NCBI GenBank assembly: GCA_964604155.1
Contig: CAZRXY010000105.1
Span: 3,123-67,122, forward strand
Length of the DNA: 64,000 nucleotides
Direction: 5' to 3'
Source: an uncultured Candidatus Cloacimonadota bacterium
GTDB taxonomy: Bacteria; Cloacimonadota; Cloacimonadia; Cloacimonadales; TCS61
Shown: piece after piece, positions 8,002-51,751 of the stretch
Layout of the letters: every line of letters starts with the position of its first letter
How positions within the stretch are numbered: the stretch's first letter is position 1
The notes under the pieces: model-generated
What the model was told of the DNA's origin: nothing
What the model saw: the letters and a program-made list of their open reading frames with translations, nothing else
The model's database searches: none
Made by a program: the position numbers and the translations under genes

Positions 8002-8201
8002 AAAGTCTCTCCTTTGAATTTTAAAAATTAACTTCTTAATCAAATCGTTTTCCTTTTCCGAGGATGCGAAACGGCTGCCCACATCCATCCTCCCTGCGAT
8101 AGTGGCGGTTTGCTCTTGTCTTTCTCTTCGACTCTTCTTAATTTGGATATTCTCTTTCATTATCAATCTTCTTCTTGCTTACTCCTCATGGCTTTTTCCC
8201 A

Positions 8202-19054: not shown

Positions 19055-20557
19055 CTATTCACCTCCGATTTCTTTTTTAAACAGCCTGATAATATTTTCA
19101 GGCTTTGACCACTTGGCAAGAGACTGTCTGGCTCTTTTGATCTCGTGCTTTTCAAAAAATCCCAGTAAATAGAGGAGCACCGGGTAGAGAATGAGGATAA
19201 TCACATCAGTGATCATCCTGAGAATCACCTGCCACTCCGGGATAACAAGCCAGATATAAATCAATCCGATGCCAACTAAAAACGCTTTCAAATATTTGAC
19301 AACCTCATAATTTGAATAACCATATTTTTTATTTATGGCAAGGCAGACGAGTACGGCGACAGCCTGCGAGGCGGCAGTAGTGAGAGCAGCGCCCAGAGAA
19401 CCCAGCCGGGGAATCACCAGAAAATTTAAAATTAGATTCATCACGCCAGCACCTATCGCTATCAAAGATATAAGATAAGATTTTTTCATCTTTGCCATTG
19501 GCATAAAGAGCATGGAACGCATCCCGAAAAGGATAGCACTTGCCACCAGATATGGCACGATGTGCAGAGAATCATAATAATCCGCATTGGCAGTGAGAAA
19601 TTTTATCACCGTCTTACTGATAATACTGAGTAATATCCCGCTGTAGATAGCAATAAAGGTAAAATAAGTGATAGATTTATCAAAAAAATGGTCATGTTTT
19701 TCATTATTGATCTCATTGTAGTATTTGATATTATAGGTTCTCATAAAGGAGCGGACTATCAGCAGCTTTATAAGGCTGGCAACTTTATAGGCAAGAGAAT
19801 ATTGCCCTACATCGGAAAGTGAATAGTAATGCTTGAGAATAAAGCGATCACTAAGCGTCATCACTAGAGCAAAAAGTGCCGAAATTGCCAGAGGCAGAGA
19901 ATATCTGATCATTTTTTTGAGAAGTTGTAATTCTATAACGAGCTTTATTTCTCGGGAAAGATAGGGGATCAGCAGCAAAAATACAAGCATATTACCACAA
20001 ATCTGTCCCAGAAACACGCCCTCAATGCTCATATTTAGCTGCATGATAAAGAATACCGTGGTGATTAAGACGGTGCCAAGATTTATCAGCACATATCTGG
20101 TTTGCCTCATCACCTGCTGCTTGATCTGCATGAGATAAATGACCCTGAGCACTATCACCCGCAGCAGAATATTAATGAGGAATATACCAATGACGGAGGT
20201 GGAGACAGCTATATCAAAAATCTGGAGTGAATACATGTCTATCAGGAAAAAACCGATAAGAAGACAGATAAACGTGGAGATTATAGAAAATAAAAGCGTA
20301 GTGAAAAACAAGGATTTTTGACGGTCTTTGCCTTCATTATCCCAGTACCAGCGATTGAAACCGTTCTCTATGCCCAGTGAGGAAGTGGCTATTATCACGT
20401 CTGCCAATATCTCAAAAAGAGCCAGTAAGCCATAAACTTCTATAGAAAAATTACGCGCATAGACCGGTAAAAGAATAAAGCCGATCAATTTAACGGCAAT
20501 ATTTCCGATGCCGTAATAAAAAGTCTGCTTTGCTGCACTTCTGATCCTCTCTATCAC
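19055..20557 (-). CDS. Wzx/MOP-superfamily oligosaccharide flippase
   Basis: 500 aa with about 14 TM helices. N-terminus FYYGIGNIAVKLIGFILLPVYARNFSIEVYG. GTG start with an AGGAGG about 14 nt upstream. Confidence 0.75.
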   Translation of the reverse strand: MIERIRSAAKQTFYYGIGNIAVKLIGFILLPVYARNFSIEVYGLLALFEILADVIIATSSLGIENGFNRWYWDNEGKDRQKSLFFTTLLFSIISTFICLLIGFFLIDMYSLQIFDIAVSTSVIGIFLINILLRVIVLRVIYLMQIKQQVMRQTRYVLINLGTVLITTVFFIMQLNMSIEGVFLGQICGNMLVFLLLIPYLSREIKLVIELQLLKKMIRYSLPLAISALFALVMTLSDRFILKHYYSLSDVGQYSLAYKVASLIKLLIVRSFMRTYNIKYYNEINNEKHDHFFDKSITYFTFIAIYSGILLSIISKTVIKFLTANADYYDSLHIVPYLVASAILFGMRSMLFMPMAKMKKSYLISLIAIGAGVMNLILNFLVIPRLGSLGAALTTAASQAVAVLVCLAINKKYGYSNYEVVKYLKAFLVGIGLIYIWLVIPEWQVILRMITDVIILILYPVLLYLLGFFEKHEIKRARQSLAKWSKPENIIRLFKKEIGGE

Positions 20558-20626
20558 CAGGGCTTTATAACCTCCTGTAATCTTTCAGTCCGACAATCTT
20601 TCTTATTTTGGTAGATCATGGAATTC

Positions 20627-20666
20627 TGTCAATTTATATAACAAGCTGGCATACTCCCGGAATTTA
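20627..20666 (-). promoter_or_regulatory. TTGACA box (20627-20632) plus conserved upstream motif TAAATTCCGGGAGTATGCCAG (20646-20666) in front of the flippase operon
   Basis: One of four copies of the motif; see also 30926-30966, 47161-47201 and 39159-39201. Confidence 0.45.
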
Positions 20667-20680
20667 TTTGTTTGTTTGGG

Positions 20681-20740
20681 ATATTGAACTTATGAAGTTA
20701 TTGGTCGTCACCATTGCGAAGGTCGGGCGACCATTCGCAA
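20681..20740. repeat. 42-bp repeat (20681-20722, 41/42 identical to 30982-31023) running into the palindrome TTGCGAAGGTC-GGGC-GACCATTCGCAA (20714-20740)
   Basis: Direct comparison of the two regions by eye. Confidence 0.8.
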
Positions 20741-20884
20741 GTGTGGCAGATTCAGGTTTAAGCTATATATATTAATAATATACGGCGTCACTTTTGTGCC
20801 ACTCTATGTTTGATTAGTGTAACATGATAATTTTGTGTGTTTTATGTGTAGCAATTAGGTGGGAGAGGGAACGAATTTATTTTT

Positions 20885-20916
20885 GCCACGGATTTCACGG
20901 TTTTTACACGGATTCA
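20885..20916 (+). repeat. Three direct CACGG(A/T)TT units: GCCACGGATTTCACGGTTTTTACACGGATTCA
   Basis: CACGG at 20887, 20896 and 20907. An inverted copy, AATCCGTGGC, lies at 21014-21023. Confidence 0.6.
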
Positions 20917-20936
20917 ATTAAAAAATATTCATCGTC

Positions 20937-20991
20937 GGGGGTTAAAACCCCATTTTTTCTAGTTTTGGTATCCACGAGTTGAAACTCGTGG
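20937..20991. repeat. Hairpin pair: GGGGGTTAAAACCCC and CCACGAGTT-GA-AACTCGTGG
   Basis: Perfect palindromes at 20937-20951 and 20972-20991. Confidence 0.75.
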
Positions 20992-21060
20992 CTATGCATA
21001 TATAACAGGTTGTAATCCGTGGCTTTCATAATATAATAGAACTCTTGGCTATGCATTATG
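20983..21060 (+). repeat. Three degenerate tandem ~26-31-bp units ending in (C/T)(G/T)TGGCT(A/T)T(G/C)CAT
   Basis: AACTCGTGGCTATGCATATATAACAGGTTGT / AATCCGTGGCTTTCATAATATAATAG / AACTCTTGGCTATGCATTATG. Two similar units occur at 31414-31450. Confidence 0.55.
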
Positions 21061-21121
21061 GACTGTCTCCTATCACTGAAAAGTGTACCAGATAGATGTA
21101 GTTTCTTGTTTTGCAGTGAAT

Positions 21122-21191
21122 AGCCCTGAGCTTTAGCTCGGGGTTTTTATGCACTCTCTCAGTCGGGATTTATCCCAGGGTTATTTTTGAT
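21122..21191 (+). repeat. ~70-bp interspersed element, copy 1. It starts with the terminator-like hairpin AGCCCTGAGCT-TT-AGCTCGGGGTTTTT and ends with GGGATTTATCCCAGGG
   Basis: Aligns by eye with 31292-31362 and 34064-34127. All three copies are in the same orientation. Confidence 0.7.
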
Positions 21192-21297
21192 TAATGGAAG
21201 TCAGGTCGGTGGTTGAGGGGATAATTTGTTGGGATGTGATGCGGATCGAAGGGTTTTCAATTTTATTTCTTCTGCTTCAGGGGCAGGGGGTAATAAG

Positions 21298-23052
21298 TTA
21301 TTCTATGGCATAGATGAAGAAGCGGTAGTAATTGAAGGGGTTTTTTTCTCGGTAAACTTCTTTTAGTCCTTTTTCTGAGGCGTTAACAATTTTTGCGGTA
21401 GAGAAGAGATAATCAATTTTGAGCTCTTTGAGCAAAGTTGTATTCAGGTCACAGGTAATGGACTTGAATTTTCTTTTCAAGTATTCCTGGTCAAGCATTT
21501 CAATGAATATTTCGTCATCGAAGAGGTATAATTGGGAGCCCCATTTATTCATATAGATTTTCAGTCTGGGGTTTTTATTCATTTCATTTTCGAGAATATT
21601 CAGGAAGGTTTGCTTGAGATGGAGAGGGTAGATGGGGCAATAGGCGCCCAGGGTTTTGTATCCGTTAAAATTTGCTACAGCGGGTTGGAATCCCACGCAG
21701 CCTATGCGAGTATCTTCTTTGGAAAATCCTGGTTCGTTTTCACTGAGGAAATTAGTGATATCATCGAACTGTTTTTTTGATACTACCTGATAGTATGTGG
21801 GTTTTTCTGTCCAGGTTTTATAGCTTGAATTGCAGTAGTTGATAGTGATTTGAGCGAATAAAACAATTAAGGCAATGCTTAGAATAGTTTTTTTGCCGTG
21901 GTATTTACTGTAAAAGAATGTGATAGCAATGGCGGTGAGTAAATACCAGACTGGAGGGTTCAAGAAGAATAAGCGGGAGTAATCAAAGCCGAATTTCAGA
22001 TTCGTGTAGAATTCGTTAACCGGTTCGAAGCGGTAAATAGAGAACATCAGAGCACTGAGAATGATGAAAGCAATCAATTGGATCGACAATTTGCGCAAGA
22101 AGAAAGAGCGGTTACGAAAGATAAGGGCAGCGGATATGACACTTACAGGCAGCAAAAGGTATTGATGATAAGATGGAGCATGCCTGTGAGAAGTGACAAA
22201 ATAGTTAAGGAACAGATCATTCCAGGCATCCGCCAGATTTTTTGACAATAACTGAATTTCTGATCTATTTGTGGGTATTTTGTAAACGAAGTTGATCAGA
22301 AAGAAAGAATAATTAGTGAGGACATAAATCACTGTCATCAGGATAATAGGTGGAATTAATCTTTTATATTTTAATTTGCTGATCATCCTGACCAGGATCA
22401 GAAGACCGAGAATAGCCATCACAAAAATTCCGGTAAGGAAGAACCCTGAATAAGTGATATAAATCAGCAGGAAGAGATATGAGAGAAAGACCTGCTTTTT
22501 ATGGAAAATATTTAGAAGAATCACAGTTAGCAGAGGCAAACCTGAGACAGATAAACCGCCCTGCTGCCAGAATGGGAGGTAGATATATGCAATTGAGATC
22601 AGAGCTGGAAACAAGCGTGGTAACCCTTTCATAATATAGAGTTTTAGCAGCAGGTAGAAACCGATAAAAGCCAGCAACCTATAGAAGAATTCATTTAGCA
22701 CATATCCCCTGAAAAACCCCAGTAGCCAGAAAATTTTGGGCAGAGAAGGGACAGCGAGTCTGAAAACCGGCTCCATCCCGGGCAGATAGAATTCCTCCAT
22801 ATTATCATTAAGGAAAAAATGCCCTTGGAACTTGCCATCGAAATGACCCAGATAGCTCATTTGATCGAGGTTATCGAATTGAGGAATAGAAACATTTTCA
22901 CCCTTGATGAAATAGGGCAGGAAATAGAAAATGAATAATGATATTATCAGCGTGAGGACAATTTTTGGATTATCGAGTAGTTTCCAGAATGCAGTTCCAG
23001 AAAACTCTTCACAGCTATTTTCGGCAATAATTTTGTTCTTTTTTTTGCTCAT
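21298..23052 (-). CDS. Large polytopic membrane protein of the glycan operon, possibly DUF6044-like; candidate periplasmic glycosyl/acyl-sugar transferase or polymerase
   Basis: 584 aa with more than 10 TM helices plus a soluble C-terminal domain. The N-terminal GENVSIPQFDNLDQ motif is reminiscent of DUF6044. Its start overlaps the stop codon of the upstream aminotransferase gene by 1 nt at 23052. Confidence 0.5.
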   Translation of the reverse strand: MSKKKNKIIAENSCEEFSGTAFWKLLDNPKIVLTLIISLFIFYFLPYFIKGENVSIPQFDNLDQMSYLGHFDGKFQGHFFLNDNMEEFYLPGMEPVFRLAVPSLPKIFWLLGFFRGYVLNEFFYRLLAFIGFYLLLKLYIMKGLPRLFPALISIAYIYLPFWQQGGLSVSGLPLLTVILLNIFHKKQVFLSYLFLLIYITYSGFFLTGIFVMAILGLLILVRMISKLKYKRLIPPIILMTVIYVLTNYSFFLINFVYKIPTNRSEIQLLSKNLADAWNDLFLNYFVTSHRHAPSYHQYLLLPVSVISAALIFRNRSFFLRKLSIQLIAFIILSALMFSIYRFEPVNEFYTNLKFGFDYSRLFFLNPPVWYLLTAIAITFFYSKYHGKKTILSIALIVLFAQITINYCNSSYKTWTEKPTYYQVVSKKQFDDITNFLSENEPGFSKEDTRIGCVGFQPAVANFNGYKTLGAYCPIYPLHLKQTFLNILENEMNKNPRLKIYMNKWGSQLYLFDDEIFIEMLDQEYLKRKFKSITCDLNTTLLKELKIDYLFSTAKIVNASEKGLKEVYREKNPFNYYRFFIYAIE

Positions 23053-24182
23053 TACTTTTTTTCTGATATAAAGGCTTTAGTCAGTTCGGCACAGCATTTT
23101 TCGACATCATCGGAACTTAAGTTATAATGCATTGGTAATCTTAAGATAGTATCAGCCACCATTTCTGCAACCGGGAGCTTCAGGTTCTCATATAGTCTAT
23201 TCCAATAGGGAGCTTTATGCAGTGGCAGGTAATGGAAAGCAGATTGAATATCCATCTGGTGCAATTTATTGATAATATTTTTGCGGTGCGTTTCGCTTTC
23301 CGTTAATATGGAAAAGCAGTGACCGTTTGGTTGGCAGCTTTTTTCAACAACAGGGAGAGACCGTTTTGGCAGGTTCTCTTTAAGTTTTTTGATATAGCAA
23401 TAAAAAAGTTTTTGCCGTTTAAGATTAACATTTTTCAATTCCAGAAGCTGGGCATAAAGAAATGCAGCCTGTAATTCACTTAGATAATAATTTGAACCAT
23501 TTTTCCACCACGACCAGTAATCAATTTTCCCATCGTTAAAATCTTTTCTATCTGTGCCACGGTCTCTAATCTTTTGTGCTCTTTCCATGAAATGCGGTGA
23601 ATTAATGATAAGAGCACCACCTTCGCCACAATGGATATTTTTTGTTTGATGAAAACTGGTGATTGCCAGGTCTCCAAAAGAGCCTAATGGCAGATCACGA
23701 TAATAAGCTGCAATACCATGGGCATTATCTTCGATCAGGATTAATGAGTGTTTTCTGCATATTTCTTTGATCACGGCGATATTATCTGAGATTCCGGCAT
23801 AATTGACAGTAACAACCGCTTTTGATTTTGGGGAGATGAGTTTTTCCAGTTTATGTTCATCCAAATTCCTGGTTGATGCTTTGATATCGCACCAGATTAG
23901 CCTTGCTTTTTGTCGTGCAAATGCGGAGGCAGTTCCTACGTGGGCAAAAGGTGGGAGTATTATTTCATCGCCCGGATTGATATCCAGCAATTCTGAAGCA
24001 ATACAAAGAGCTGAGCTGCCCGAAGAAGTTAACAGGACTTTTTTTGCCTGGAATAAATCAGCAAGGGTCTTTTCGCACTTTTGGGAAAATACTCCATCTC
24101 CACAGAAATAACCATTTTTGAATACCTGATCAAGGAATATTTTTTCTGTGCCGAGTAAAAGAGGTTCATTGAAAATAATCAT
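23052..24182 (-). CDS. DegT/DnrJ/EryC1 (WecE-like) PLP-dependent sugar aminotransferase
   Basis: TSSGSSAL...DNAHG...SFHQTKNIHCGEGGALI, including the PLP lysine motif. Confidence 0.9.
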   Translation of the reverse strand: MIIFNEPLLLGTEKIFLDQVFKNGYFCGDGVFSQKCEKTLADLFQAKKVLLTSSGSSALCIASELLDINPGDEIILPPFAHVGTASAFARQKARLIWCDIKASTRNLDEHKLEKLISPKSKAVVTVNYAGISDNIAVIKEICRKHSLILIEDNAHGIAAYYRDLPLGSFGDLAITSFHQTKNIHCGEGGALIINSPHFMERAQKIRDRGTDRKDFNDGKIDYWSWWKNGSNYYLSELQAAFLYAQLLELKNVNLKRQKLFYCYIKKLKENLPKRSLPVVEKSCQPNGHCFSILTESETHRKNIINKLHQMDIQSAFHYLPLHKAPYWNRLYENLKLPVAEMVADTILRLPMHYNLSSDDVEKCCAELTKAFISEKK

Positions 24183-24865
24183 GACAGGTTTCCCCAGATA
24201 AAATTACCGCTCTTATTTCCGTGGTGAAACAGCAGATCGAGTGCAGAAAGTCGGGGTAAGAATTTTCCCCAGACCTGATCATATCCCGGGTAGCGGGGGT
24301 AGCGGAAAAATTCGACTTTTATGCCTGCCTGCCGGTAAATCTTCTCTTGCAGATAGGCTTTGGCAGAAGGTCCTGTGATATAGGTATCTGCGCCCAGGGT
24401 TTTTACAATGTTCAGTAGGCGGTGGCTTTTTTCTGTGGATGTGGAAAACTCTCTATCGTCATAGAACAGCGTCTTTATACCCAGCAATTTGGAGATTTCC
24501 TTGATCAGAGACTGGTTAAGATCGGATAAATAGGTCCATTGATTTGAATATATCTTCTCGATTAGCGGGAAGTATTCCTCGAAACAGGGGCATTTGCTAT
24601 AGAATTGTTTCAGAGTTTTCGGATGATTATTTTTCCATCTATGATCAGCAATTACCGCTTTATTGATGGGCGTATATCTTGTGGCGTGAACAGGCACGGA
24701 GAGCCAGATTGGTCCAGTGGGGGTCTTAACAAGATTACGGTTACGCCAATCTCTTCTTGTATAATTTACAGAGTCCAGAAACACAAAGTAATCCGCTGAG
24801 CGGATAATGTGAAAATATCCTATCCAGGGCAGATAATTAGATTGGATGATTGCCACACTGCTCAT
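24179..24865 (-). CDS. WbqC family protein
   Basis: AIIQSNYLPWIGYFHIIRSADYFVFLDSVNYTRRDWRNRN is the characteristic WbqC-like N-terminus. Confidence 0.8.
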   Translation of the reverse strand: MSSVAIIQSNYLPWIGYFHIIRSADYFVFLDSVNYTRRDWRNRNLVKTPTGPIWLSVPVHATRYTPINKAVIADHRWKNNHPKTLKQFYSKCPCFEEYFPLIEKIYSNQWTYLSDLNQSLIKEISKLLGIKTLFYDDREFSTSTEKSHRLLNIVKTLGADTYITGPSAKAYLQEKIYRQAGIKVEFFRYPRYPGYDQVWGKFLPRLSALDLLFHHGNKSGNFIWGNLS

Positions 24866-25548
24866 ATAGATATTCTTAAAAATCTGGCAGGATTACCTGC
24901 CCAGATCTCTTTTTCGCCAATATTATTCAGAAGCACCGACCCCATGCCTAAAGTGGAGTATTTTTTTATTACCAGATCTTCACGTACCGTGGCATTGAGA
25001 GCAATATGAACCCCTTCTTCGAGCAGGACATGAGAACTAAGACAACTTTGAGCAGCGAGATGGCAATGAGCATTAAGCACAGTATTATGCCCTACCGAAG
25101 AATTTACCATCAGAAGGCAGCCATCGCCAATAACGGCTTCAGAAGAAACAGAGACCTGAGGCATGATAACAGTTCCGAGCCCGACTTTAGCAGAAGGAGC
25201 TACATACGCCATAGGGTGAATGAAAGTGAAGAGTGCTTCCTGAGGGATATTCAGGCTTTTAAAGATATCTATACGTTCTTTTTGTCCATCTATGCGGTAT
25301 ATGGTAAAAATAAACCTGAATCCCTGCTTCAGGAATAGCTGAACGTCTGTCAGAGAACCCAGTACCGGATATCCGGCTATCTGATCACCTTTGGCAAGTC
25401 TATCGTTCAGAAAACCGCAGACACGGGCATTAGAGCTATGCTGCAGCCGGGCATCCGTGATTGCATCGGCTATCACGCTGCCATTGCCACTGCCTCCGAT
25501 AATTATAATATTTTCATTCATACTATTATCCCTTGTATATCTCATCAA
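24862..25548 (-). CDS. NeuD/PglD-like sugar N-acyltransferase (left-handed beta-helix)
   Basis: Rossmann-like N-terminus IIIIGGSGNGSVIADAI followed by hexapeptide repeats. Confidence 0.8.
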   Translation of the reverse strand: MMRYTRDNSMNENIIIIGGSGNGSVIADAITDARLQHSSNARVCGFLNDRLAKGDQIAGYPVLGSLTDVQLFLKQGFRFIFTIYRIDGQKERIDIFKSLNIPQEALFTFIHPMAYVAPSAKVGLGTVIMPQVSVSSEAVIGDGCLLMVNSSVGHNTVLNAHCHLAAQSCLSSHVLLEEGVHIALNATVREDLVIKKYSTLGMGSVLLNNIGEKEIWAGNPARFLRISI

Positions 25549-26284
25549 TAATAAATACGGGACGAAATTGCAAGAGAAATTTTTTTCCCAGCAATTTCTG
25601 AGCCGGGATATTGTAAGGAAGAATCCGGCACAGGGCGAGACGCATCATTTTTCCGAAAGTATAACTGCTTTTTAGTTTGTTTTTTTCGCGAGGTAAGGCA
25701 ATAGATTCCCAGGAATATTCTGAAGCGTGAATATAGCTAAGCACCGTTCCGGGAGATTGCAAAGCCTCATTAAGATGATCCAGGCATTTTTTTTTCATAA
25801 TTCTGAAAACACCTGAACGGCGGGGAAATCTCAATCTCGTCAATAGGGTTGTGAGAAAATAAAAAGTATCAGAAAGAAAATTACGCCATACTGATCTATT
25901 TATCTGCCGTCTGGTGGCAATAATCATATCCGTATTTACCCGCCTGATCTTCTCGTAGAGCAGGATAATATCTTCCGGTTTATCCTGCAGGTCAGAATCC
26001 ATTACAGCGATGTAATCACCTTCTGCCTTTGTGAAACCTGCTGCTATGGCATTTGACTGTCCGAAATTTTTCTTAAGCTTGATAATCGTCACTGCGGGAT
26101 ATATTTTTTGCAGCTCTCTCATCAATGGGAGTGAATCATCTGTGGAACCATCATCTATCAGAATAATCTGATACCGCTTATTAAGTGATTCCAGAGCTTT
26201 ATTTAGCCGCAGAATAAAATCTTCAAGAGAATCTGCCCCGTTGAATAGAGGAGCTACAATTGATAATTCAATATTCGATGTCAT
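25526..26284 (-). CDS. Polyprenyl-phosphate glycosyltransferase (GT2; DPM1/ArnC/GtrB type)
   Basis: LSIVAPLFNG...ILIDDGSTDDS...VMDSDLQDKPEDI, the DxDLQxxPE signature of this GT2 subgroup. Confidence 0.8.
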   Translation of the reverse strand: MTSNIELSIVAPLFNGADSLEDFILRLNKALESLNKRYQIILIDDGSTDDSLPLMRELQKIYPAVTIIKLKKNFGQSNAIAAGFTKAEGDYIAVMDSDLQDKPEDIILLYEKIRRVNTDMIIATRRQINRSVWRNFLSDTFYFLTTLLTRLRFPRRSGVFRIMKKKCLDHLNEALQSPGTVLSYIHASEYSWESIALPREKNKLKSSYTFGKMMRLALCRILPYNIPAQKLLGKKFLLQFRPVFIIDEIYKG

Positions 26285-27252
26285 TCTCGTTTTCCGGGAG
26301 GTGAGGTGTGAATAGCCAGACTGAGAATTCCTCCGATCAGAGCCGGTATCCCGGCTTGGATCAAGAAATTAAGCAGTGAAAGCGTAATCAGTGATTGAGC
26401 CGGAATACCGAACTGCTGATAGAAATAAATGAAGGCGCCTTCGCGTATGCCAAATCCGGCGACCGTAAAAGGTAAGAGCGAGATAACCTGGATAATGGGG
26501 ATCAGGCAGAAATGATTGATCATCGGCAGATTATAGCCCATAAACCTGAAAAGGCAATAGATCACAAAATAACTCATTATCTGTACGGAAAGGATAAGCA
26601 GTGCTGCGGCTGCAAGTTTTTTTTTATCTGCTTTTTTCCAGGAAAGCAGAAGCAGCCTGATAAAGCGGAGAACTCGCCGGAGAATACTATTTCCGGTCAC
26701 GGTGTCCTTTAGTTCCGGCATCAGGGCAACCAAAGATACCAGCCCCAGCATTGTTGCAAGCAATACGATCAATATCGATTGCAATTTACCCGTCTGCGGA
26801 TGACCAGGAAAGAATCCCGCTATCAAGGCAGTAGTTAGAAGGATAAGAATTCCAAAAAACTTTTCCAGCACAATAGAGCCAATAGTTTTTTCTTTGATCT
26901 CAGGATAACTATGAGCCACCAGAACCATTCTAATAAAAGCAAAGCCATCTGACGAGGGCAGCATTACTCCCCAGAAAATGGATAGGAAATTGAACTTTAT
27001 CAATTTAGATAAGCGTATTTTAACATTTACCGCTCTCAGCACAATTTGCCAGCGCCAGCCGGCAAGAAACGGAGTAAGCAGGACAGCATTGATAATACAG
27101 GGCAGCAGCCAGAGGGGCGCTTGAATATCTGATTTGAGAGTTTTTAGCGAATAGCCCCAGCGAATGATCAGATAAGATAGCAGCAATATCGTAGCTGCCA
27201 GTTGCAGTAATTTCAGGATTTTTTTTCTATCGGTCAACCGAGTATCTCCCAC
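26281..27252 (-). CDS. Flippase-like membrane protein (UPF0104 / LPG-synthase-TM domain)
   Basis: 323 aa with about 8 TM helices. It is translationally coupled to the GT2 gene by a 4-nt overlap. Confidence 0.6.
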   Translation of the reverse strand: MGDTRLTDRKKILKLLQLAATILLLSYLIIRWGYSLKTLKSDIQAPLWLLPCIINAVLLTPFLAGWRWQIVLRAVNVKIRLSKLIKFNFLSIFWGVMLPSSDGFAFIRMVLVAHSYPEIKEKTIGSIVLEKFFGILILLTTALIAGFFPGHPQTGKLQSILIVLLATMLGLVSLVALMPELKDTVTGNSILRRVLRFIRLLLLSWKKADKKKLAAAALLILSVQIMSYFVIYCLFRFMGYNLPMINHFCLIPIIQVISLLPFTVAGFGIREGAFIYFYQQFGIPAQSLITLSLLNFLIQAGIPALIGGILSLAIHTSPPGKRE

Positions 27253-28160
27253 ATCCGTTTCAAAGAGCTCAAAGATTTTTCTGCAACAGCCGGATCTAGA
27301 TTAACTTCATATCGCTCATCAAGCAGAGCTTCTTTAACCAGCTTCAGGTTTATCAGTTTCATATCTTCGCAAATCATCCGTGGGCTGAGAGGGGTCAGTT
27401 TTTTATGGGGAAAACGCTTTTTTAATTGATCATATAGACCCGTTTCTGTGCCCAGTATCAGCTTGTTATGATCTTGAGCGTATTCTATCATCTGACTGGT
27501 TGAACATACCATGTCTGCCATTTTGCAAACTTCCAGTTCGCATTCCGGATGAACCAGCAATGAATAATCGGGGAATCTGTCTTTTTGCTCTTTCGCTTCC
27601 CGATAACTTATCTGGTGGTGTACGTAGCAATAGCTGTTGAACATGATCAGTTTTCTACCGGTGCGGTATTCCACCCATTTTCCGATGTTGCTATCCGGGA
27701 TGAAAATGATCTGTTTATGATCAGGTAATGCCTGCACAATCTTCACGCAATTAGCAGAGGTGCACGTAATTGTGCTTTCAGCCCGTAATTCTGCTGCGGA
27801 ATTAACATAACAGACCACTTCTGCTGCCGGGTAGTTCCTTTTGAGTGCCCGAAGCTCCTGAACTTTATTCATATTAGCCAAGCGGCAATCTGCTGAAGGA
27901 TGTGCCATGAACACCTTTTTATCAGGATTGAGCAGTTTGGCAGATTCTCCCATGATCCTGATACTGCTCACCAGAATCCTGCCAGACTCCGAATTCGCAG
28001 CATTTAATGCCATTTGCAGGGAATCACCCACATAATCGGATATATCCTGCACATCAGTATCCACATAGTTGTGGGCAATAATATAATAGTCTTTCTCACG
28101 CTTCAAAGAGAGAATTTCTTCCTTTAGCCTGTCAACATCAATTTTATCTATTGGGTTCAT
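27234..28160 (-). CDS. Divergent quinolinate-synthase (NadA) family [4Fe-4S] protein, paralog of 52189-53094
   Basis: AHNY, GDSLQ, CYVNS, TCTS, HPEC and GTETG motifs are present, as are all three cluster Cys contexts (SADC, SYCYVHH, MICEDMK). The canonical FMAETAK reads IMGESAK. Confidence 0.8.
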   Translation of the reverse strand: MNPIDKIDVDRLKEEILSLKREKDYYIIAHNYVDTDVQDISDYVGDSLQMALNAANSESGRILVSSIRIMGESAKLLNPDKKVFMAHPSADCRLANMNKVQELRALKRNYPAAEVVCYVNSAAELRAESTITCTSANCVKIVQALPDHKQIIFIPDSNIGKWVEYRTGRKLIMFNSYCYVHHQISYREAKEQKDRFPDYSLLVHPECELEVCKMADMVCSTSQMIEYAQDHNKLILGTETGLYDQLKKRFPHKKLTPLSPRMICEDMKLINLKLVKEALLDERYEVNLDPAVAEKSLSSLKRMWEILG

Positions 28161-28169
28161 TTATTCTCC

Positions 28170-29468
28170 TTACAGATTTCTGCCGGCAATTTTTGAAATA
28201 ATAAAGGGTGTTTTGCCTCCGGCTGTTTTCTCTAAATGTGTTACTATATTAAAATCAAGCTTCATCTCGTTACCAATCCGTTTGCGTAATCCTGCTTCCA
28301 ACGCTTCCTGTGATGCTTCATTATAGTTATTATCTACAACCACGCGAATCAGAAGATGGTCATACTCATCCTGCACACATTGAGAGATAATCACGCCTTT
28401 TGCCTGATCCACAGAGTGAGACATCACTGCTCCAAGAATTCTGCCATCGGGTGTATATATTGCATCACAATCCTTGCCGAATATTTCTTCCACAACCCTG
28501 AAAGCTCTGCCACAGGCACATTCTGAATTTGACGGCTGCACTCTGTCACGCGTGTCATACCGTATCAAGGGCATCATGTAATTATAAAAATTTGTCCCCA
28601 CCAGCCTCCCTTCTTCAGTTGCAGGCTTCTCGTTATCCTCTACAATTTCCATATAGGCAAAATCTTCGATTAGATGCAGGCTGCCTTTTTCGCATTGGGA
28701 GATCATTGCGCTGCCCTCGTGCATAGAATGAAAATCAAAAACCGGGCAATCATAGAGATCGATCAGCATCTTGCGTTTCTCGCCTGAGAGTTTCTCGCCG
28801 TAAGTAATTATCGAATGAGGAGAAGGTATCTTTATGCCGCTTTCAGCAGCGAAACGGGCAATCATTAGAATATCAAAAGGAAAACCGATAATATTTTTCA
28901 CAGGCTTTTTGATTATCTCTTCGACTAGCCGGAGGGCAGAAGACCTGCTTAACCTGTTTGAATCATAGCGAATTATGTTATAAAGCGGATTTAATTGAAA
29001 ATCTGACTCTTTTAGATAATAGCTTTGAACCATCAGCGTTCTTCTTCGAAGGCGGTATCCCGCCCAATAGAAGCTGCGCAATAAAGCAGCAATTTTATTT
29101 GCCTGCACGGCATCATTCAAAGCAAAATGCAGTGGTGTCCCGGTGGAACCGCTGGTGGAATCCCAGATGATGTTCCTGCTATTTGCCTGATCAGATAAAA
29201 ATTCTTCTGGTCTGGTTCGCACAATTTCCTTATTCAAAAGAGGGATTTTGCACATGTCTTCTCTGCCTCTGAATTTATCAGCTTCAAATCCCATTTTTCT
29301 AAACAGCTTGCGATAATACGGCACATGCTTATCTGCATATTTAATCAATTGCTTCAGGCGTTCATCCTGATATCTTTTTAGGTTCTGCCGATCCCAGTAC
29401 TGTGACCTGTTGTAAAAACTGTGTCTGAATAATACTTGTAGCGGAAGCTGGAAGATTGATTTTTCCAT
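28170..29468 (-). CDS. CapK / phenylacetate-CoA ligase / F390-synthetase family adenylate-forming enzyme
   Basis: DSTSGSTGTPLHF AMP-binding motif; 432 aa. Confidence 0.8.
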   Translation of the reverse strand: MEKSIFQLPLQVLFRHSFYNRSQYWDRQNLKRYQDERLKQLIKYADKHVPYYRKLFRKMGFEADKFRGREDMCKIPLLNKEIVRTRPEEFLSDQANSRNIIWDSTSGSTGTPLHFALNDAVQANKIAALLRSFYWAGYRLRRRTLMVQSYYLKESDFQLNPLYNIIRYDSNRLSRSSALRLVEEIIKKPVKNIIGFPFDILMIARFAAESGIKIPSPHSIITYGEKLSGEKRKMLIDLYDCPVFDFHSMHEGSAMISQCEKGSLHLIEDFAYMEIVEDNEKPATEEGRLVGTNFYNYMMPLIRYDTRDRVQPSNSECACGRAFRVVEEIFGKDCDAIYTPDGRILGAVMSHSVDQAKGVIISQCVQDEYDHLLIRVVVDNNYNEASQEALEAGLRKRIGNEMKLDFNIVTHLEKTAGGKTPFIISKIAGRNL

Positions 29469-29475
29469 ATTTTTT

Positions 29476-30372
29476 TTACGCTCTTGAATTTTCCCACTTT
29501 TCTATCAGCCGGCTTCGTCTGATTATTAATTCTGCTCTTTTCAGCATTGGCGGACCAATAAAGCGATCATCCAGCACTGCTACCCCTCTTTCTTCAGTTT
29601 CGGCAATTTTTGTTAATCTGATGATCTCTATTGCTTCTGAAACCTCTGAATTTGAGGGCGTGAAATATCTGTGCACAAGCTCAATCTCTTTGGGGTGCAA
29701 AACCAGCATCCCTTCAAATCCCAGATTTTTTGCTAATTGCAGATTTGCTTCCAAATCATCAAGATCATGAACATTCACATGAACAGTATCTATGGGAATA
29801 ATGGAATTTGATCTTGCCGTTATCGCTATTTTTGCCCGGGGATACAAAAGACTTTCACCTCTTACGTCATGGATACCCTGCAAATCTGTAATAAAATCTT
29901 CACACCCGAAGGCTATTGCTATTATCCGCCGGGAAGTACTACATATTTCATCTAAATGTACTAAAGCCGAACAGGTCTCTATTATTGGTATCAGCTTGAG
30001 TTCATTTGGTTTTTTCTTGTTTTTCTGCTCTGCTACCTGCAGCAATCTATCAATAAACCTAATATCATCGCAATTAAAGGCTTTGGGAAATAAAAATCCT
30101 GTAACAGGCAACTGGCTGAAAACCCTGACTTCGTCCTGTAATAATTTGCTATTCCGGTCATTTAAACGGATAAACAGCAAATGGCGGTGAAATATTCCTT
30201 CTTTGATCAATTGGCTGCAAAGCTGTCTTGCTTTTATCTTGTTCTCTGCCGGTACTACGGAATCCTCCAGATCAAGTATGAGTGCGTCTGATCTTGTGAT
30301 TGCCGCTTTTCGCAGAAGCTTTTCCCTGTGCCCTGGCACAAAGAGTAGTGACCGTAACACAAAATCAATCAC
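29476..30372 (-). CDS. HpcH/HpaI aldolase - citrate lyase beta (CitE)-like acyl-CoA lyase
   Basis: RSLLFVPGHREKLLRKA...DALILDLEDSV...AIAFGCEDF. Confidence 0.8.
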   Translation of the reverse strand: MIDFVLRSLLFVPGHREKLLRKAAITRSDALILDLEDSVVPAENKIKARQLCSQLIKEGIFHRHLLFIRLNDRNSKLLQDEVRVFSQLPVTGFLFPKAFNCDDIRFIDRLLQVAEQKNKKKPNELKLIPIIETCSALVHLDEICSTSRRIIAIAFGCEDFITDLQGIHDVRGESLLYPRAKIAITARSNSIIPIDTVHVNVHDLDDLEANLQLAKNLGFEGMLVLHPKEIELVHRYFTPSNSEVSEAIEIIRLTKIAETEERGVAVLDDRFIGPPMLKRAELIIRRSRLIEKWENSRA

Positions 30373-30829
30373 TGCTCATTCTCGCTGGTATCAGAACATT
30401 TCTGATTAAGGTTAATACAAGCTGATTTCTTTGATTATAGGCAGAAGTTCTGACCCTGATTATTCCCCGATCCGGTTTTGAGCGTGACTTTTTTATATTC
30501 AGTATTTCTGATTCCACGCGGATAGTATCACCAATATAAACCGGAGCTGCATGATGCACTTTTTCATAATCAAGATTTGCTATTGCCTTACCACTGATAT
30601 CTCTCACCGTGAGCCCCACAGACAGCGAAAATACAAGAGTCCCCACCACAACACGCCTGCCGAATTCTGTTTTCTCTGCATAATTGCTATTTAGATGCAG
30701 CGGGTGATGATTCATCGTTAACAGGCAGAACAGGTTGTTATCACTTTCTGTGATAGTTTTTGCCGGTTCATGAATTATCACTTCTCCTGCTTGAAATTCT
30801 TCCAGGTATCTGCCAAATGATGATCCCAT
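30365..30829 (-). CDS. MaoC-like (hot-dog fold) enoyl-CoA hydratase/dehydratase
   Basis: ITESDNNLFCLLTMNHHPLHLNSNYA...FGRRVVVG. First gene of the operon. Confidence 0.8.
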   Translation of the reverse strand: MGSSFGRYLEEFQAGEVIIHEPAKTITESDNNLFCLLTMNHHPLHLNSNYAEKTEFGRRVVVGTLVFSLSVGLTVRDISGKAIANLDYEKVHHAAPVYIGDTIRVESEILNIKKSRSKPDRGIIRVRTSAYNQRNQLVLTLIRNVLIPARMSSD

Positions 30830-30925
30830 TTTCCTTACTCCTTTTTTTAATTTTCGCGCAATCTCACTGCCGTTACACGTAATTCCTTACTGCAGGCAAC
30901 TGGATTGATTGTATATTAATTTATC

Positions 30926-30966
30926 TGTCAAGCAAAATTATTCTCCTGGCATACCCCCGAAATTTA
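30926..30966 (-). promoter_or_regulatory. TTGACA box (30926-30931) plus conserved motif TAAATTTCGGGGGTATGCCAG (30946-30966) in front of the MaoC...glycan operon
   Basis: Second copy of the motif, in the same arrangement as at 20627-20666. Confidence 0.45.
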
Positions 30967-30981
30967 ATTGTAAGGTTGTAA

Positions 30982-31114
30982 TATTGAACTTATGAAATTA
31001 TTGGTCGTCACCATTGCGAAGGACTAAAGACCATTAGCACGGTAACTTAGATTAAAGAAGTGTCCTCATCCAAAACCTTGCGAATGGTCGCCAGACCTTC
31101 ACAATGGTTGACCT
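30982..31114. repeat. 42-bp repeat (30982-31023) plus an inverted copy of the TTGCGAA/TTCGCAA palindrome unit (31077-31114); together a ~110-bp imperfect palindrome
   Basis: 31077-31114 (CCTTGCGAATGGTCGCCAGACCTTCACAATGGTTGACC) is the reverse complement of 20703-20742, apart from a few changes. Confidence 0.75.
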
Positions 31115-31291
31115 TGAGAACAATCTTTATCTCACATAATATAAATCATTTAACAATACCAAAAATTATAAAATCGGGGGGATGCCTGTATTTATTCTCA
31201 CTCTGGCAACTTCCCGATTTTTTTTATTTGGCTAAAAAAATTATCCTGCAGGGGTGATGGGATAATTGTGAATTTTGGATTTTGAATGATT

Positions 31292-31362
31292 AGCCCCGGG
31301 ATTTTAGCTCGGAGATTGGGATGTCTCTCTGAAAAGGGATTTATCACAGGATAAAGTTTGAT
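31292..31362 (+). repeat. ~70-bp interspersed element, copy 2 (degenerate hairpin)
   Basis: AGCCCCGGGATTTTAGCTCGGAGATTGGGATGTCTCTCTGAAAAGGGATTTATCACAGGATAAAGTTTGAT aligns with 21122-21191. Confidence 0.7.
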
Positions 31363-31371
31363 TTCTGATTT

Positions 31372-31425
31372 GGGGTTAAAACCCCCACTATTTGGGTTAT
31401 TAGATCCACGAGTTAATACTCATGG
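31372..31425. repeat. Hairpin pair: GGGGTTAAAACCCCC and CCACGAGTTAATACTCATGG
   Basis: Same order as at 20937-20991. The second hairpin is decayed. Confidence 0.7.
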
Positions 31426-31602
31426 CTATTCATTTATATAGCAGGCTGAAAATTATGGCTATTTCTCAGTTTCAGCCCAGCAGCCGCTTATATGTATTCT
31501 GCGAAGTATTAGAGTTATCTTACGGTTATACAATGGAGAGGTATATATGAATGAATAAAGGAAAAGAAAGAGATGGTATTTAAAAAATATTACAAATATT
31601 TC

Positions 31603-31608
31603 TTGACA
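31603..31608 (+). promoter_or_regulatory. TTGACA -35-like box upstream of the beta-helix protein gene
   Basis: An exact TTGACA lies 108 nt upstream of the ATG at 31716. The -10 is unclear. Confidence 0.3.
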
Positions 31609-31715
31609 GGAAAATGGCAAGTGTCCCTTGTTAGAGTCGGACGTGGGACGAGTGATATTCAGTGGTTTGTAATGAGGTATCTTCTGTTAGTGAATGTCCC
31701 TGTATTGGAGGAATA

Positions 31716-34010
31716 ATGAAAAAAGGACGACTTATTTTAGCAGTTTTATTATTATTCAGTCTTTGTCTGTTTTCAAACGTCACCAGGCAAAGCGTAATTG
31801 TACCCGAAGAAGTAGAAACCATCCAGGGGGCAATAGATCTTGCGGTGAGTGGAGATGTTATAATTGTTTTACCTGGGACCTATACTGAAAATATCGATTT
31901 TATGGGTAAAGAGCTTGTTGTTGGTTCATTGTATTATACCACACAGGACACAAGTTACATATCGCAGACGGTAATCGATGGTGGTCAAAACGGAAGCGTA
32001 GTGACATTTAACAGTGGAGAGGGCGGCAATTCCGTATTATCGGGATTTACAATAACAAACGGGGTAACTTCAGCGGATGGTGGCGGAATATACTGTGGCG
32101 ATAATACAAGTCCTTTGCTTGATAATCTGAGAGTTATCAATAATCAGGCGAGTAATGGTGGTGGTTTATTTTTTGGCACGAATTCTTCGATAAGTATTAT
32201 TTCGACATTGATCAGTGATAATAATGCTACATATCAGGGTGGTGGGGCATATTTGTATTATTGCGATCTCATTATGAATGATGTTGTGCTGGAAAATAAT
32301 GAATGTGTTTATACGGGAGGAGGTATGTCAATCACATCCTCCGAAATAGTCATGGAAAATGTATCAGTGATAAATAATACTGCTTCCGGGTCATACGGTT
32401 CAGGGGGAGGATTATTTAATTACTGGGAATCAGTGATCGACTTGGATTCCTGCCTATTCGAAGGTAATTTTGCCGTCACAGGAGGCGGAATTTGTTGTGA
32501 TGAAATGACAGCATTATATCTAGAGAATACTTTAATCAAAGAGAATGAAGCATCATACTCTGGAGGTGGAATTTTCTTTGGCTGGGGCTTGGAATTATCC
32601 ATAGTTAATTCAGAAATAGATAATAATACGGCAGGAACAAATGGGGGGGGGCTTTTTTTAAGTGGATTTGATCAGGATTTGAATAAGGTGCTGATAACTA
32701 ATAATACTGCGGGATCAAAAGGTGGAGGGATTTTTATTAATGGCTGGTCTAATGTTGATCTTTTAAATACTACTATCGTGGATAATACAGCCGAAGAAAA
32801 TGGAGGAGGAATCTACGCTGATTACAATTATAATTATGCAAGACTAATCAACTCCGTCTTATGGGACAACTTACCACAAGCTTTGTATCTGAATTATTCA
32901 GGGAATACGTTTCCAACTGAAGTAACAGTAGCTTATAGCAATTTTGAAGGTGGCTATGATGCAATAGGCGTTTCCAGTTATGATAATGTGATCATCAACT
33001 GGCTGGAGGGTAACATAGATGAAGAACCGGGATTTATTGATCAGGTTGGTGGAAATTATCAGTTATTGAGCAATTCGCCGTGCATTGATAGTGGAACAGC
33101 TTACTTTGAATATAACGAAGAAGTTTTACTAAATCTTGAGGCAGAAGAATATGAGGGAGAGGCGCCGGATATGGGTGCCTATGAATTCTCAGGTGTCAAA
33201 TATGGAGATATAAATAATGATGGGGCGATTGATAGTTACGATGCCTCACTCCTTTTGATGTACGTAATTGGCATGGATCCTTTGGAGGATGATCCAGTCC
33301 CATGGGAAGAATGGAGGGTCGAACGTGCTGATGTCAATCTGGATGGTGAAATAGAAGCTTTGGATGCAGCACTCGTACTTCAAAATGCTGTAGGGCTTAT
33401 AGAATTACCTGTGCGGGGCGGTATCAGAGGAAGCAGCGAAATCACAATATCCAGTGACGAACAGTATATTTATCTGAACAGCGATTATGAATTGATCAGC
33501 TTTGAATATACTATCAGCGAATATAGTAATCTGGAATTCAGAGCTGGAGAGGTTAATTACGATAATTGTTTATATTTACAGAAAGGTGATAGAATGGCGA
33601 TAATATCTGCAGAAGGGTTATCCGGAAATTTAGTGCAGATTCCTTATACAAGAACAGGCGCTTATATAGATAGTTACGTTACTTTTAATGTCATCAGTAA
33701 TGGCTGGCATGAGCAAATTACATATCTGCTCAATGGTGAAACTCCTTCTATCAGCAGGATTAGCGCAGTCTATCCAAATCCTTTCAATCCGGAGACGACG
33801 ATCGAGTATCAATTAGCCCAGCCTGGTAAAACCAGTATTGAGGTCTATAATATCAAGGGACAAAAAATAGAGACGCTATTCAACGAAGAGCAGGATGCAG
33901 GAAATTACAATTTCAGATGGAATGCAGATGGACAGAGCAGTGGAGTCTATTTTGTCCGTGTGAAAAATGGCTCCTTTGAAGGCAGAGAAAAAATTATTCT
34001 TCTGAAATAG
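31716..34010 (+). CDS. Secreted parallel beta-helix protein (Pmp-like GGG(I/L/A) repeats) with a canonical dockerin module and a T9SS-type C-terminal domain
   Basis: Start at ATG 31716 (GGAGGA RBS; MKKGRLILAVLLLFSLCLFS signal peptide). About 10 repeats of N..A..GGG(I/L) type. Dockerin GDINNDGAIDSYDASLLLMYVIG...ADVNLDGEIEALDAALVLQNAVG. Tail VYPNPFNPETTIEYQL...GVYFVRV...KIILLK. Confidence 0.9.
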   Translation: MKKGRLILAVLLLFSLCLFSNVTRQSVIVPEEVETIQGAIDLAVSGDVIIVLPGTYTENIDFMGKELVVGSLYYTTQDTSYISQTVIDGGQNGSVVTFNSGEGGNSVLSGFTITNGVTSADGGGIYCGDNTSPLLDNLRVINNQASNGGGLFFGTNSSISIISTLISDNNATYQGGGAYLYYCDLIMNDVVLENNECVYTGGGMSITSSEIVMENVSVINNTASGSYGSGGGLFNYWESVIDLDSCLFEGNFAVTGGGICCDEMTALYLENTLIKENEASYSGGGIFFGWGLELSIVNSEIDNNTAGTNGGGLFLSGFDQDLNKVLITNNTAGSKGGGIFINGWSNVDLLNTTIVDNTAEENGGGIYADYNYNYARLINSVLWDNLPQALYLNYSGNTFPTEVTVAYSNFEGGYDAIGVSSYDNVIINWLEGNIDEEPGFIDQVGGNYQLLSNSPCIDSGTAYFEYNEEVLLNLEAEEYEGEAPDMGAYEFSGVKYGDINNDGAIDSYDASLLLMYVIGMDPLEDDPVPWEEWRVERADVNLDGEIEALDAALVLQNAVGLIELPVRGGIRGSSEITISSDEQYIYLNSDYELISFEYTISEYSNLEFRAGEVNYDNCLYLQKGDRMAIISAEGLSGNLVQIPYTRTGAYIDSYVTFNVISNGWHEQITYLLNGETPSISRISAVYPNPFNPETTIEYQLAQPGKTSIEVYNIKGQKIETLFNEEQDAGNYNFRWNADGQSSGVYFVRVKNGSFEGREKIILLK

Positions 34011-51749: not shown

Positions 51750-51751
51750 TA

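Follow-up and report, generated by a model that had tools for sequence, protein, structure and literature searches.

Why would a bacterium keep a second quinolinate synthase in the middle of an operon for surface sugars? The question is raised by a 64,000-nucleotide stretch of DNA from an uncultured Candidatus Cloacimonadota bacterium (contig CAZRXY010000105.1 of assembly GCA_964604155.1; hereafter the window), which encodes two members of the quinolinate synthase NadA family (PF02445 / TIGR00550 / NF006878). To our knowledge, the single known job of NadA is to make quinolinate for the synthesis of NAD de novo. One of the two proteins, NadA1 (52189–53094, plus strand), is of the housekeeping type and serves as the reference copy; the other, NadA2 (27234–28160, minus strand), is a [4Fe-4S] paralogue encoded within a densely packed minus-strand operon of ten genes (21298–30829). 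The stable embedding of an intact NadA paralogue clade in an amino-sugar operon resembling the Arn and Gtr systems is the main observation reported here. Our tentative answer is that NadA2 may be a synthase of the quinolinate type that was recruited to provide the pyridine-dicarboxylate with which the amino sugar is decorated. The locus had been singled out in a sequence-only reading of the window, whose open reading frames (ORFs) match exactly and whose family assignments are upheld by profile searches, including that of a canonical NadA next to dut (NadA1 follows dut and scores 382 bits against the Pfam NadA model).

NadA2 matches the curated NadA models with 324 bits (Pfam, cutoff 27), 336 bits (NF006878, cutoff 294) and 287 bits (TIGR00550, cutoff 263). 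In a sequence search of the PDB, it aligns with solved NadA chains over residues 12–306 with few gaps (E 2e-65, ~45% identity), and it is predicted to adopt the three-domain, pseudo-symmetric NadA fold. Its cysteines C92, C178, and C264 align with C83, C170, and C256 of the Pyrococcus horikoshii enzyme (PhNadA) and are invariant in 81 members of the clade, so that NadA2 is predicted to keep the three ligands of a [4Fe-4S] cluster in which one Fe site is open. The AHNY, GDS, YVNS, HPEC, and GTE boxes are also present, with IMGESAK in place of FMAETAK, just as the sequence-only reading had described. The residues invariant in the 81 sequences comprise H21, Y23, S38, C83, Y109, N111, S126, C170, H173, H196, E198, T213, and C256 (P. 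horikoshii numbering, also used below), which bind the cluster or the substrates or act in catalysis in NadA structures. Because these residues are invariant, NadA-type chemistry is predicted to be retained, and NadA2 is probably a catalytically competent [4Fe-4S] enzyme of the NadA type.

Ten positions that are conserved among 148 other NadAs (121 of the NadA1 type and 27 others) carry a fixed switch in the NadA2 clade, namely L41M, V58I, F60I, G82D, M85L, V116L, D121T, C123T, L149I, and G215Q. F60I represents the change from FMAETAK to IMGESAK; G82D and M85L flank the cluster ligand C83, G215Q lies two residues past T213, and D121T affects an aspartate that is otherwise conserved in 96–99% of NadAs. 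P84 is relaxed in the clade. When 1.84 billion representative proteins were scanned in full, the ten-position signature occurred, among the best 150 matches, only in the NadA2 clade, with other proteins matching at no more than two of the ten positions; none of the other 147 representatives examined shows the pattern. The switching of ten near-invariant positions and the absence of the pattern elsewhere indicate a distinct subfamily but do not exclude NadA2 from the NadA family. The copy had been called divergent, which is true of its clade and its fixed switches but not of its first-shell active site, which is intact, or of its scores, which pass the equivalog cutoffs. NadA2 represents a new subfamily, or a variant, within a known enzyme family; no description of its operon context was found in the literature.

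The phylogeny points in the same direction. In a neighbor-joining tree of 229 NadAs, NadA2 is monophyletic in 100/100 bootstraps, and its clade joins the NadA1 set of Cloacimonadota against all other NadAs in 89/100. The distance to outgroup NadAs is 1.05 substitutions per site for NadA2 and 0.86 for NadA1. An old duplication after which NadA2 changed faster would fit these distances and the topology. The two proteins of the window are 41% identical over 291 residues, aligned without gaps. Compared with the established quinolinate synthases of P. horikoshii (1WZU/5KTM) and Thermotoga maritima (4P3X), NadA2 shares homology over its full length, the cysteine ligands, and the pattern of catalytic and substrate-binding residues, but it differs in forming a separate clade with ten fixed switches, in being a second copy wherever this is checkable, and in residing in an operon for glycan decoration rather than among NAD or housekeeping genes.

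The operon encodes, in this order, a MaoC-type hydratase, an HpcH/CitE-type lyase, a PaaK/CapK-type ligase, NadA2, an LPG_synthase_TM protein, a GT2 glycosyltransferase, a left-handed beta-helix (LbH) N-acyltransferase, a WbqC-family protein, a DegT aminotransferase, and a DUF6044 membrane protein. As the sequence-only reading had it, the ten genes form a single minus-strand unit, in which neighbors lie −1 to +9 nt apart or overlap, with two predicted overlaps of ~20 nt. The ligase is encoded 9 nt upstream of NadA2; its stop codon is followed by GGAG, the ribosome-binding site of NadA2 itself, and then by the NadA2 ATG.

The pairing of ligase and NadA2 is widely conserved. With a metagenome scan that used the ligase as seed, the census of loci in which NadA2 directly follows the ligase rose to 24 in addition to the window, spanning NadA2 identities of 50–81%. 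All ligases of the NadA2-linked clade for which downstream sequence is available show NadA2 as the next gene, and one split in the ligase tree separates all NadA2-linked loci from the others, compatible with NadA2 having been acquired once. Homologs at least 47% identical to NadA2 form 82 clusters, and the same cassette was present in every case examined. The closest loci and the named NadA2 homologs belong to Candidatus Cloacimonadota, with the exception of one cassette (L011) on a metagenome-assembled genome labeled Armatimonadetes. A phylogeny of NadA homologs had been proposed as a check on whether this copy forms a distinct clade with conserved glycan-gene neighbors, and both were found.

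Downstream of NadA2, the gene of the LPG_synthase_TM / TIGR00374 flippase-like membrane protein (26281–27252, minus strand; Pfam PF03706 E 6e-32; TIGR00374 52 bits, cutoff 43) abuts or overlaps that of NadA2 in the window, L001, L002, and L006–L009. The translational coupling by a 19-nt overlap that had been proposed for the window holds insofar as the two genes abut or overlap under either start choice; the exact overlap hinges on a GTG start, the alternative being a TTG start that overlaps the TGA stop codon. The intimate arrangement of the two genes in many loci could be taken to mean that NadA2 has no catalytic function and serves as an Fe-S sensor of redox state or iron, or else as a structural partner for the flippase-like protein. 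This is highly improbable, because the full catalytic set, beyond the cysteine ligands, is invariant in the 81 sequences, and a sensor has no need of Y23, N111, E198, and T213. In another locus of Cloacimonadota (L016:6573–7838, minus strand), a gene for an AAA_14/DUF4143 ATPase is inserted in opposite orientation between the ligase and NadA2, which indicates that direct translational coupling of this pair is not essential.

The partner of NadA2 in all these loci is a member of the adenylate-forming enzymes. The ligase of the window (28170–29468, minus strand) shows NCBIfam matches to DVU1553, FlxY, F390 synthetase, and PaaK, and its sequence matches in the PDB are PaaK (4r1l), NatL2, and AjiA1. 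An AlphaFold2 (AF2) model with a predicted local distance difference test score (pLDDT) of 91 retrieves PaaK-family enzymes in Foldseek (E 1e-20 to 6e-27, TM-score ~0.6), with PaaK and BT_0428 as best matches (E 6e-27). According to the model, the protein has the two-domain fold of the ANL superfamily of adenylate-forming enzymes, and the adenylation motifs W-x-STSGSTGTP and GKTP are invariant or nearly so among the ligases. Its low scores against the PaaK equivalogs (64 bits for TIGR02155, cutoff 646; 85 bits for NF041878, cutoff 700) place it in the PaaK family but not among the PaaK orthologs. All characterized structural neighbors adenylate aryl acids or small hydroxy acids, namely phenylacetate, 3-hydroxyanthranilate, 3-amino-4-hydroxybenzoate, and 2-hydroxyisobutyrate. 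Although the cassette ligase shares its fold and adenylation motifs with the aryl-acid-adenylating enzymes of the family (PaaK1/2, NatL2, AjiA1, ClxA, and HCL), it is only ~20% identical to them and belongs to a subfamily that is tied to glycan cassettes with DegT and GT2 in several lineages.

Ligases that are 45–57% identical to that of the window sit in cassettes without NadA. The loci L012 (labeled Zixibacteria) and L034 possess WbqC, GT2, LbH, MaoC, CitE, ligase, DegT, a hexose 2,3-dehydratase, and a PMT_2 protein; the set is contiguous in that order in L034, whereas it is broken up by unrelated genes in L012. In L013 (labeled Thermodesulfobacteriota), L043, and L047, an ATP-grasp gene is paired with ligase and DegT, accompanied by an adjacent GT2 in L013 and L047; in the latter, which also lacks NadA, the gene immediately after the ligase encodes an LPG_synthase_TM protein. 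Ligase and DegT, usually with a GT2 nearby, thus recur as the core of the cassettes. The ligase is present in the cassettes of all lineages seen, and the only cassette genes of the window found in none of these other cassettes are those of NadA2 and DUF6044. Around the core, accessory genes are interchangeable (an ATP-grasp protein of the L-amino-acid-ligase type, MaoC/CitE, LbH with WbqC, an NDP-hexose 2,3-dehydratase, and an LCM methyltransferase), and the terminal membrane protein is either PMT_2 or DUF6044. Together, these loci appear to represent a so far uncharacterized family of glycan-decoration cassettes with a PaaK-type ligase, in which the variable genes beside the ligase fit the role of interchangeable acid-supply modules.

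A further cassette without NadA has a NadA gene in its vicinity. On a 3.5-Mb contig from a different lineage (Ga0209692_10000001; L055:12438–17281), a NadA-less cassette of the composition WbqC-GT2-LbH-ligase-DegT-PMT_2-like ends 29 bp from the gene of a convergent NadA of the long type (388 aa, 27% identical to NadA2). The latter follows an S8 peptidase gene, and just beyond it lies a gene for an LCM methyltransferase, which also flanks the cassettes in L012 and L034. The arrangement may represent a second, independent association of NadA with a cassette or mere chance. A role as sugar dehydratase, based on the complementary occurrence of NadA and NDP-hexose 2,3-dehydratase (L012 and L034 versus L055 and the NadA2 cassettes), was not adopted, because the cases are few and the active site for small molecules is intact.

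Evidence from the reference copy, NadA1, helps to judge how much weight the conserved neighborhood of NadA2 can bear. The gene of NadA1 sits in a block (polyprenyl synthase, dut, NadA, a methyltransferase, further genes, CDP-OH_P_transf, and DUF4837) that is conserved in L010 and L068. In the window, the block (50856–56752, plus strand) holds functionally unrelated genes, including one for an ABC ATPase. NadA1 accompanies NadA2 in all three sequences in which this is checkable, namely the window and two megabase-scale contigs (3.89 and 3.68 Mb); it is located in the usual synteny block in each of them and at a distance of 1.6 Mb from NadA2 on the 3.89-Mb contig. On four other contigs of that scale, only a NadA1-type gene was found. 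In view of the co-occurrence, we reject the idea that NadA2 is the sole NadA of the cell. We likewise reject its membership in a nadA-nadB cluster, because neither the window nor any of the 68 loci encodes a NadB homolog; by contrast, an ordinary nadA-nadB pair was seen in a locus of Bacteroidota (L005). For the genes called in the annotated loci and the ORFs scanned in the window, no Pfam annotation corresponded to a nadC-type family. According to the sequence-only reading, nadB or nadC beside similar cassettes would have indicated ordinary NAD synthesis, and within this scope neither was found there. Since neither of the two NadA copies lies near nadB or nadC, the lack of these genes beside NadA2 says little. 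An Rfam scan of the whole window yielded no family at gathering score, so that neither nadA has a NAD riboswitch or another known RNA nearby.

These results bear on the main alternative explanation, in which NadA2 is a second quinolinate synthase of NAD biosynthesis, such as a differently regulated isozyme, that landed in the operon in an ancestor of Cloacimonadota and was kept by co-transcription without any part in glycan chemistry. We regard this as somewhat unlikely. An isozyme would be expected to keep all of the checked catalytic and cluster residues and to pass the equivalog thresholds, as NadA2 does, and it would not require the ligase to differ between cassettes with and without NadA. 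The uninformative absence of nadB and nadC and the persistent synteny of unrelated genes around NadA1 are also compatible with it. By contrast, it does not readily account for the fact that NadA2 never occurs without NadA1 in the checkable cases, nor for its persistence between the ligase and the flippase-like gene in the 24 further loci despite divergence to ~50% identity. A redundant copy should frequently be lost. The clade-fixed substitutions at ten otherwise conserved sites and the faster divergence relative to NadA1 also argue against a plain isozyme.

The recruitment of NadA2 to a glycan pathway, which we tentatively favor, has to contend with several observations that weigh against it. 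NadA2 exceeds the NCBI equivalog cutoffs for ordinary NadA, and most of its ten switches are conservative hydrophobic changes. The NadA1 block, in which a nadA stays among unrelated genes, renders conserved gene order in this phylum weak functional evidence, and the association in L055 is convergent, was seen only once, and could be due to chance. The ligases of NadA-linked and NadA-less cassettes show a single fixed difference, which is conservative (I/L126), so that their substrate is probably identical with or without NadA2. A changed ligase pocket had been expected in the NadA-linked cassettes, and this outcome weakens the idea that NadA2 altered the substrate of the ligase. Moreover, no enzyme in the operon is known to use quinolinate, and we know of no glycan substituted with a pyridine carboxylate. 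Nothing relevant emerged from searches of the literature for WbqC, DUF6044, NadA paralogs, F390/CapK ligases in glycan clusters, and quinolinate in Cloacimonadota.

The two genes at the head of the operon raise a different possibility. They encode a MaoC-type (R)-specific enoyl-CoA hydratase (30365–30829, minus strand; Pfam PF01575 E 4e-23, PF19315 E 4e-20), which resembles RipB/Ich and mesaconyl-CoA hydratase, and an HpcH/CitE-type acyl-CoA C-C lyase (29476–30372, minus strand; PF03328 E 3e-38) related to citryl-, malyl-, and citramalyl-CoA lyases, whose gene overlaps that of the hydratase by 8 nt. The pair recalls the neighboring hydratase and lyase genes of itaconate degradation (RipB/RipC or Ich/Ccl) and the Mch/Mcl pair. 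However, both proteins remain far below the equivalog level of RipB/RipC (130 bits for RipB_Ich, cutoff 340; 130 bits for RipC, cutoff 375; the CitE-like protein also reaches 177 bits for citE, below the cutoff), a coenzyme A (CoA) transferase is lacking, and the context is glycan synthesis rather than catabolism. MaoC and CitE are encoded in 16 of the 19 NadA2 loci with upstream sequence and are both missing from L003, L007, and L014, although the NadA2 of L014 is 81% identical to that of the window. They represent an optional module whose members travel together. DegT is absent from L003, L007, and L009/L063.

The sequence-only reading had assigned the four leading genes to a single small-acid pathway and had asked whether MaoC, CitE, and CapK are conserved neighbors of NadA2. 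This applies to the ligase, which directly precedes NadA2 in the window and the 24 further loci, but not to MaoC and CitE, which are missing from three of the 19 loci. Conversely, L012 and L034 possess MaoC, CitE, and ligase without NadA, and the ligase is nearly unchanged where NadA is lacking. The four genes are therefore not an obligate unit. The role that the sequence-only reading had proposed for them, to provide an unusual acyl or heterocyclic substituent, is putative.

The frequent co-occurrence of NadA2 with MaoC and CitE is nevertheless what would be expected if NadA2 had kept its fold and cluster but acts on other substrates, as an Fe-S hydro-lyase or condensing enzyme of C4-C5 dicarboxylates (malate, citramalate, itaconate, or mesaconate) or of a sugar-bound group of the aspartyl type, with a product other than free quinolinate. 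In crystal structures, NadA binds malate, itaconate, citraconate, and maleate as analogs of iminoaspartate. The non-conservative switches G82D and G215Q, at most two residues from C83 and T213, and also D121T might reflect such a change. The unique Fe site of NadA serves as a Lewis acid in dehydration (PMC7725820), which would suit a hydro-lyase. However, none of the first-shell residues for the two substrates or for catalysis varies within NadA2, which is unexpected if the substrate has changed, and NadA2 is kept in the three cassettes that lack MaoC and CitE. A nucleotide sugar would be excluded from the buried site of NadA. In view of this evidence, a change of substrate is unlikely.

If NadA2 was indeed recruited to supply a pyridine-dicarboxylate, the operon suggests a route from the acid to the cell surface, for which we infer the NadA2 product, its hand-over to the ligase, the identity of the sugar, and the roles of flippase and transferase as follows. 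After an old duplication in or near Cloacimonadota, NadA2 would have been recruited into an operon for a surface sugar assembled on a lipid carrier, like those of the Arn and Gtr systems. It would condense iminoaspartate and dihydroxyacetone phosphate on its cluster to quinolinate (pyridine-2,3-dicarboxylate) or a very close analog, with iminoaspartate provided by the aspartate oxidase or dehydrogenase of the cell or formed from oxaloacetate and ammonia. Instead of NAD synthesis, the acid would enter the glycan pathway, most likely by adenylation by the PaaK-type ligase, and would end as an acyl substituent of the 4-amino-4,6-dideoxyhexose made by DegT. The tailored sugar would then be loaded onto polyprenyl phosphate by the GT2 enzyme, flipped by the LPG_synthase_TM protein, and transferred to a surface acceptor by the DUF6044 protein. 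MaoC and CitE, as a separate and optional module, would probably provide the LbH acyltransferase with a C4-C5 dicarboxylyl-CoA as donor, in analogy to anthrose biosynthesis. That the surface of Cloacimonadota actually carries an amino sugar with a quinolinate-derived (pyridine-dicarboxyl) substituent, whose acid stems from this dedicated NadA paralog, is rather doubtful.

The downstream genes could provide the parts for such a route. The DegT/WecE-type sugar aminotransferase (23052–24182, minus strand) is of the dTDP-4-amino-4,6-dideoxyhexose type (NCBIfam NF008687 397 bits, cutoff 375; PF01041 E 2e-80), and the LbH N-acyltransferase of the NeuD/PglD/VioB family (24862–25548, minus strand) scores 156.6 bits against TIGR03570 (cutoff 160.8) and has Hexapep and PglD_N domains in Pfam. 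The GT2 glycosyltransferase (25526–26284, minus strand) has a clear domain (PF00535 E 9e-31) and best matches the ArnC/PgfS/PpgS type, but at 34–89 bits it stays far below the respective equivalog cutoffs (ArnC 89, PgfS 84; cutoffs 370–529); it is a presumed polyprenyl-phosphate sugar transferase, and the LPG_synthase_TM protein is presumed to be the flippase for the polyprenyl-phosphate sugar. The WbqC-family protein (24179–24865, minus strand; PF08889 E 3e-74) yielded an unusable single-sequence AF2 model (pLDDT 37).

The last gene of the operon encodes a polytopic DUF6044 membrane protein (21298–23052, minus strand; PF19510 E 6e-89), which is presumed from its position in the operon to be the terminal transferase that moves the sugar from the lipid carrier to the acceptor. 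It takes the slot of the PMT_2 (GT-C) proteins of the NadA-less cassettes L012, L034, and L055. Since hhalign detected no similarity between DUF6044 and the PMT_2 proteins that share this slot (probability 0.9%), a role as GT-C transferase is suggested only by its position. Neither WbqC nor DUF6044 gave a usable match when its sequence was searched against the PDB, and a permissive Pfam scan of both proteins and of an 818-aa ORF downstream of the operon revealed no further family.

Several known systems resemble parts of this operon. In its gene logic it matches the Arn pathway (ArnB/A/C/D/EF/T) and the three-component systems of the Gtr type: besides a DegT aminotransferase and an enzyme for N-acylation, it includes a GT2 that resembles ArnC, a candidate for a small-lipid flippase, and, at its end, a large polytopic membrane protein. 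In contrast to the Arn pathway, the candidate flippase is a member of the MprF-TM family instead of ArnE/F, and the terminal DUF6044 protein lacks detectable similarity to the PMT_2/ArnT type; WbqC, the PaaK-type ligase, and NadA2 have no counterpart in Arn. For MaoC/CitE, LbH, and DegT, the best precedent is the anthrose operon antABCD of Bacillus anthracis, where an enoyl-CoA hydratase supplies the acyl-CoA and an LbH N-acyltransferase acylates the dTDP-4-amino-4,6-dideoxyhexose made by a DegT enzyme. However, the hydratase of the window is of the MaoC type and is accompanied by a CitE-type lyase, which implies dicarboxylic acyl-CoAs, and the ant operon lacks NadA, ligase, and WbqC.

The operon is part of a wider polysaccharide region (~15.5–38 kb) on a sequence that is chromosomal, with rplM, rpsI, rpsB, tsf, pyrH, and frr at 10.6–14.3 kb. 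It is bracketed by two long intergenic gaps (20557–21298, ~740 bp; 30829–31662, ~830 bp) without an Rfam match, and scans of 20300–31800 for promoter and terminator consensus sequences gave no signal above shuffled expectation. Directly downstream, between genes for a Wzx-type flippase (19055–20557) and a GT2 (15574–16596), lies the 818-aa ORF (16598–19054, minus strand), which matches no Pfam family even at E 10 and may encode a polymerase or other envelope protein.

Cargo genes of the type IX secretion system (T9SS), recognized by C-terminal Por_Secre_tail or FlgD_ig domains, flank the cassette in the window (31662–34010, plus strand) and in L006–L009, L012, and L014, and occur inside the cassette in L012. 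The encoded proteins could be acceptors for glycosylation or anchoring, but such genes are very common in these genomes, so their adjacency may mean nothing. Elsewhere in the window, a very large secreted protein of 2178 aa (1630–8166, minus strand) combines a T9SS sorting domain with CarboxypepD_reg repeats and a dockerin domain, and a very large secreted papain-family protease (47282–49747, minus strand) possesses a lectin-like domain and a T9SS sorting domain. The genes of a formiminotransferase-cyclodeaminase and an amidohydrolase (58624–61528, minus strand) probably serve the catabolism of histidine or formiminoglutamate; their ORF calls overlap by 74 nt, probably because the TTG start of the downstream gene was called too early.

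If NadA2 is a plain isozyme, the result is an ordinary one. If it was recruited, it would be the first NadA-fold enzyme with a role outside NAD biosynthesis, and the substituent would represent a new class in glycans. In these genomes, the automatic label "quinolinate synthase NadA" may exaggerate how much of the NAD pathway is encoded. The retention of a NadA paralog clade in an amino-sugar operon across a candidate phylum would be a rare case of recruitment of an Fe-S enzyme to envelope chemistry, and the context of NadA2 points to either an undescribed glycan substituent or a new chemistry of the NadA type.

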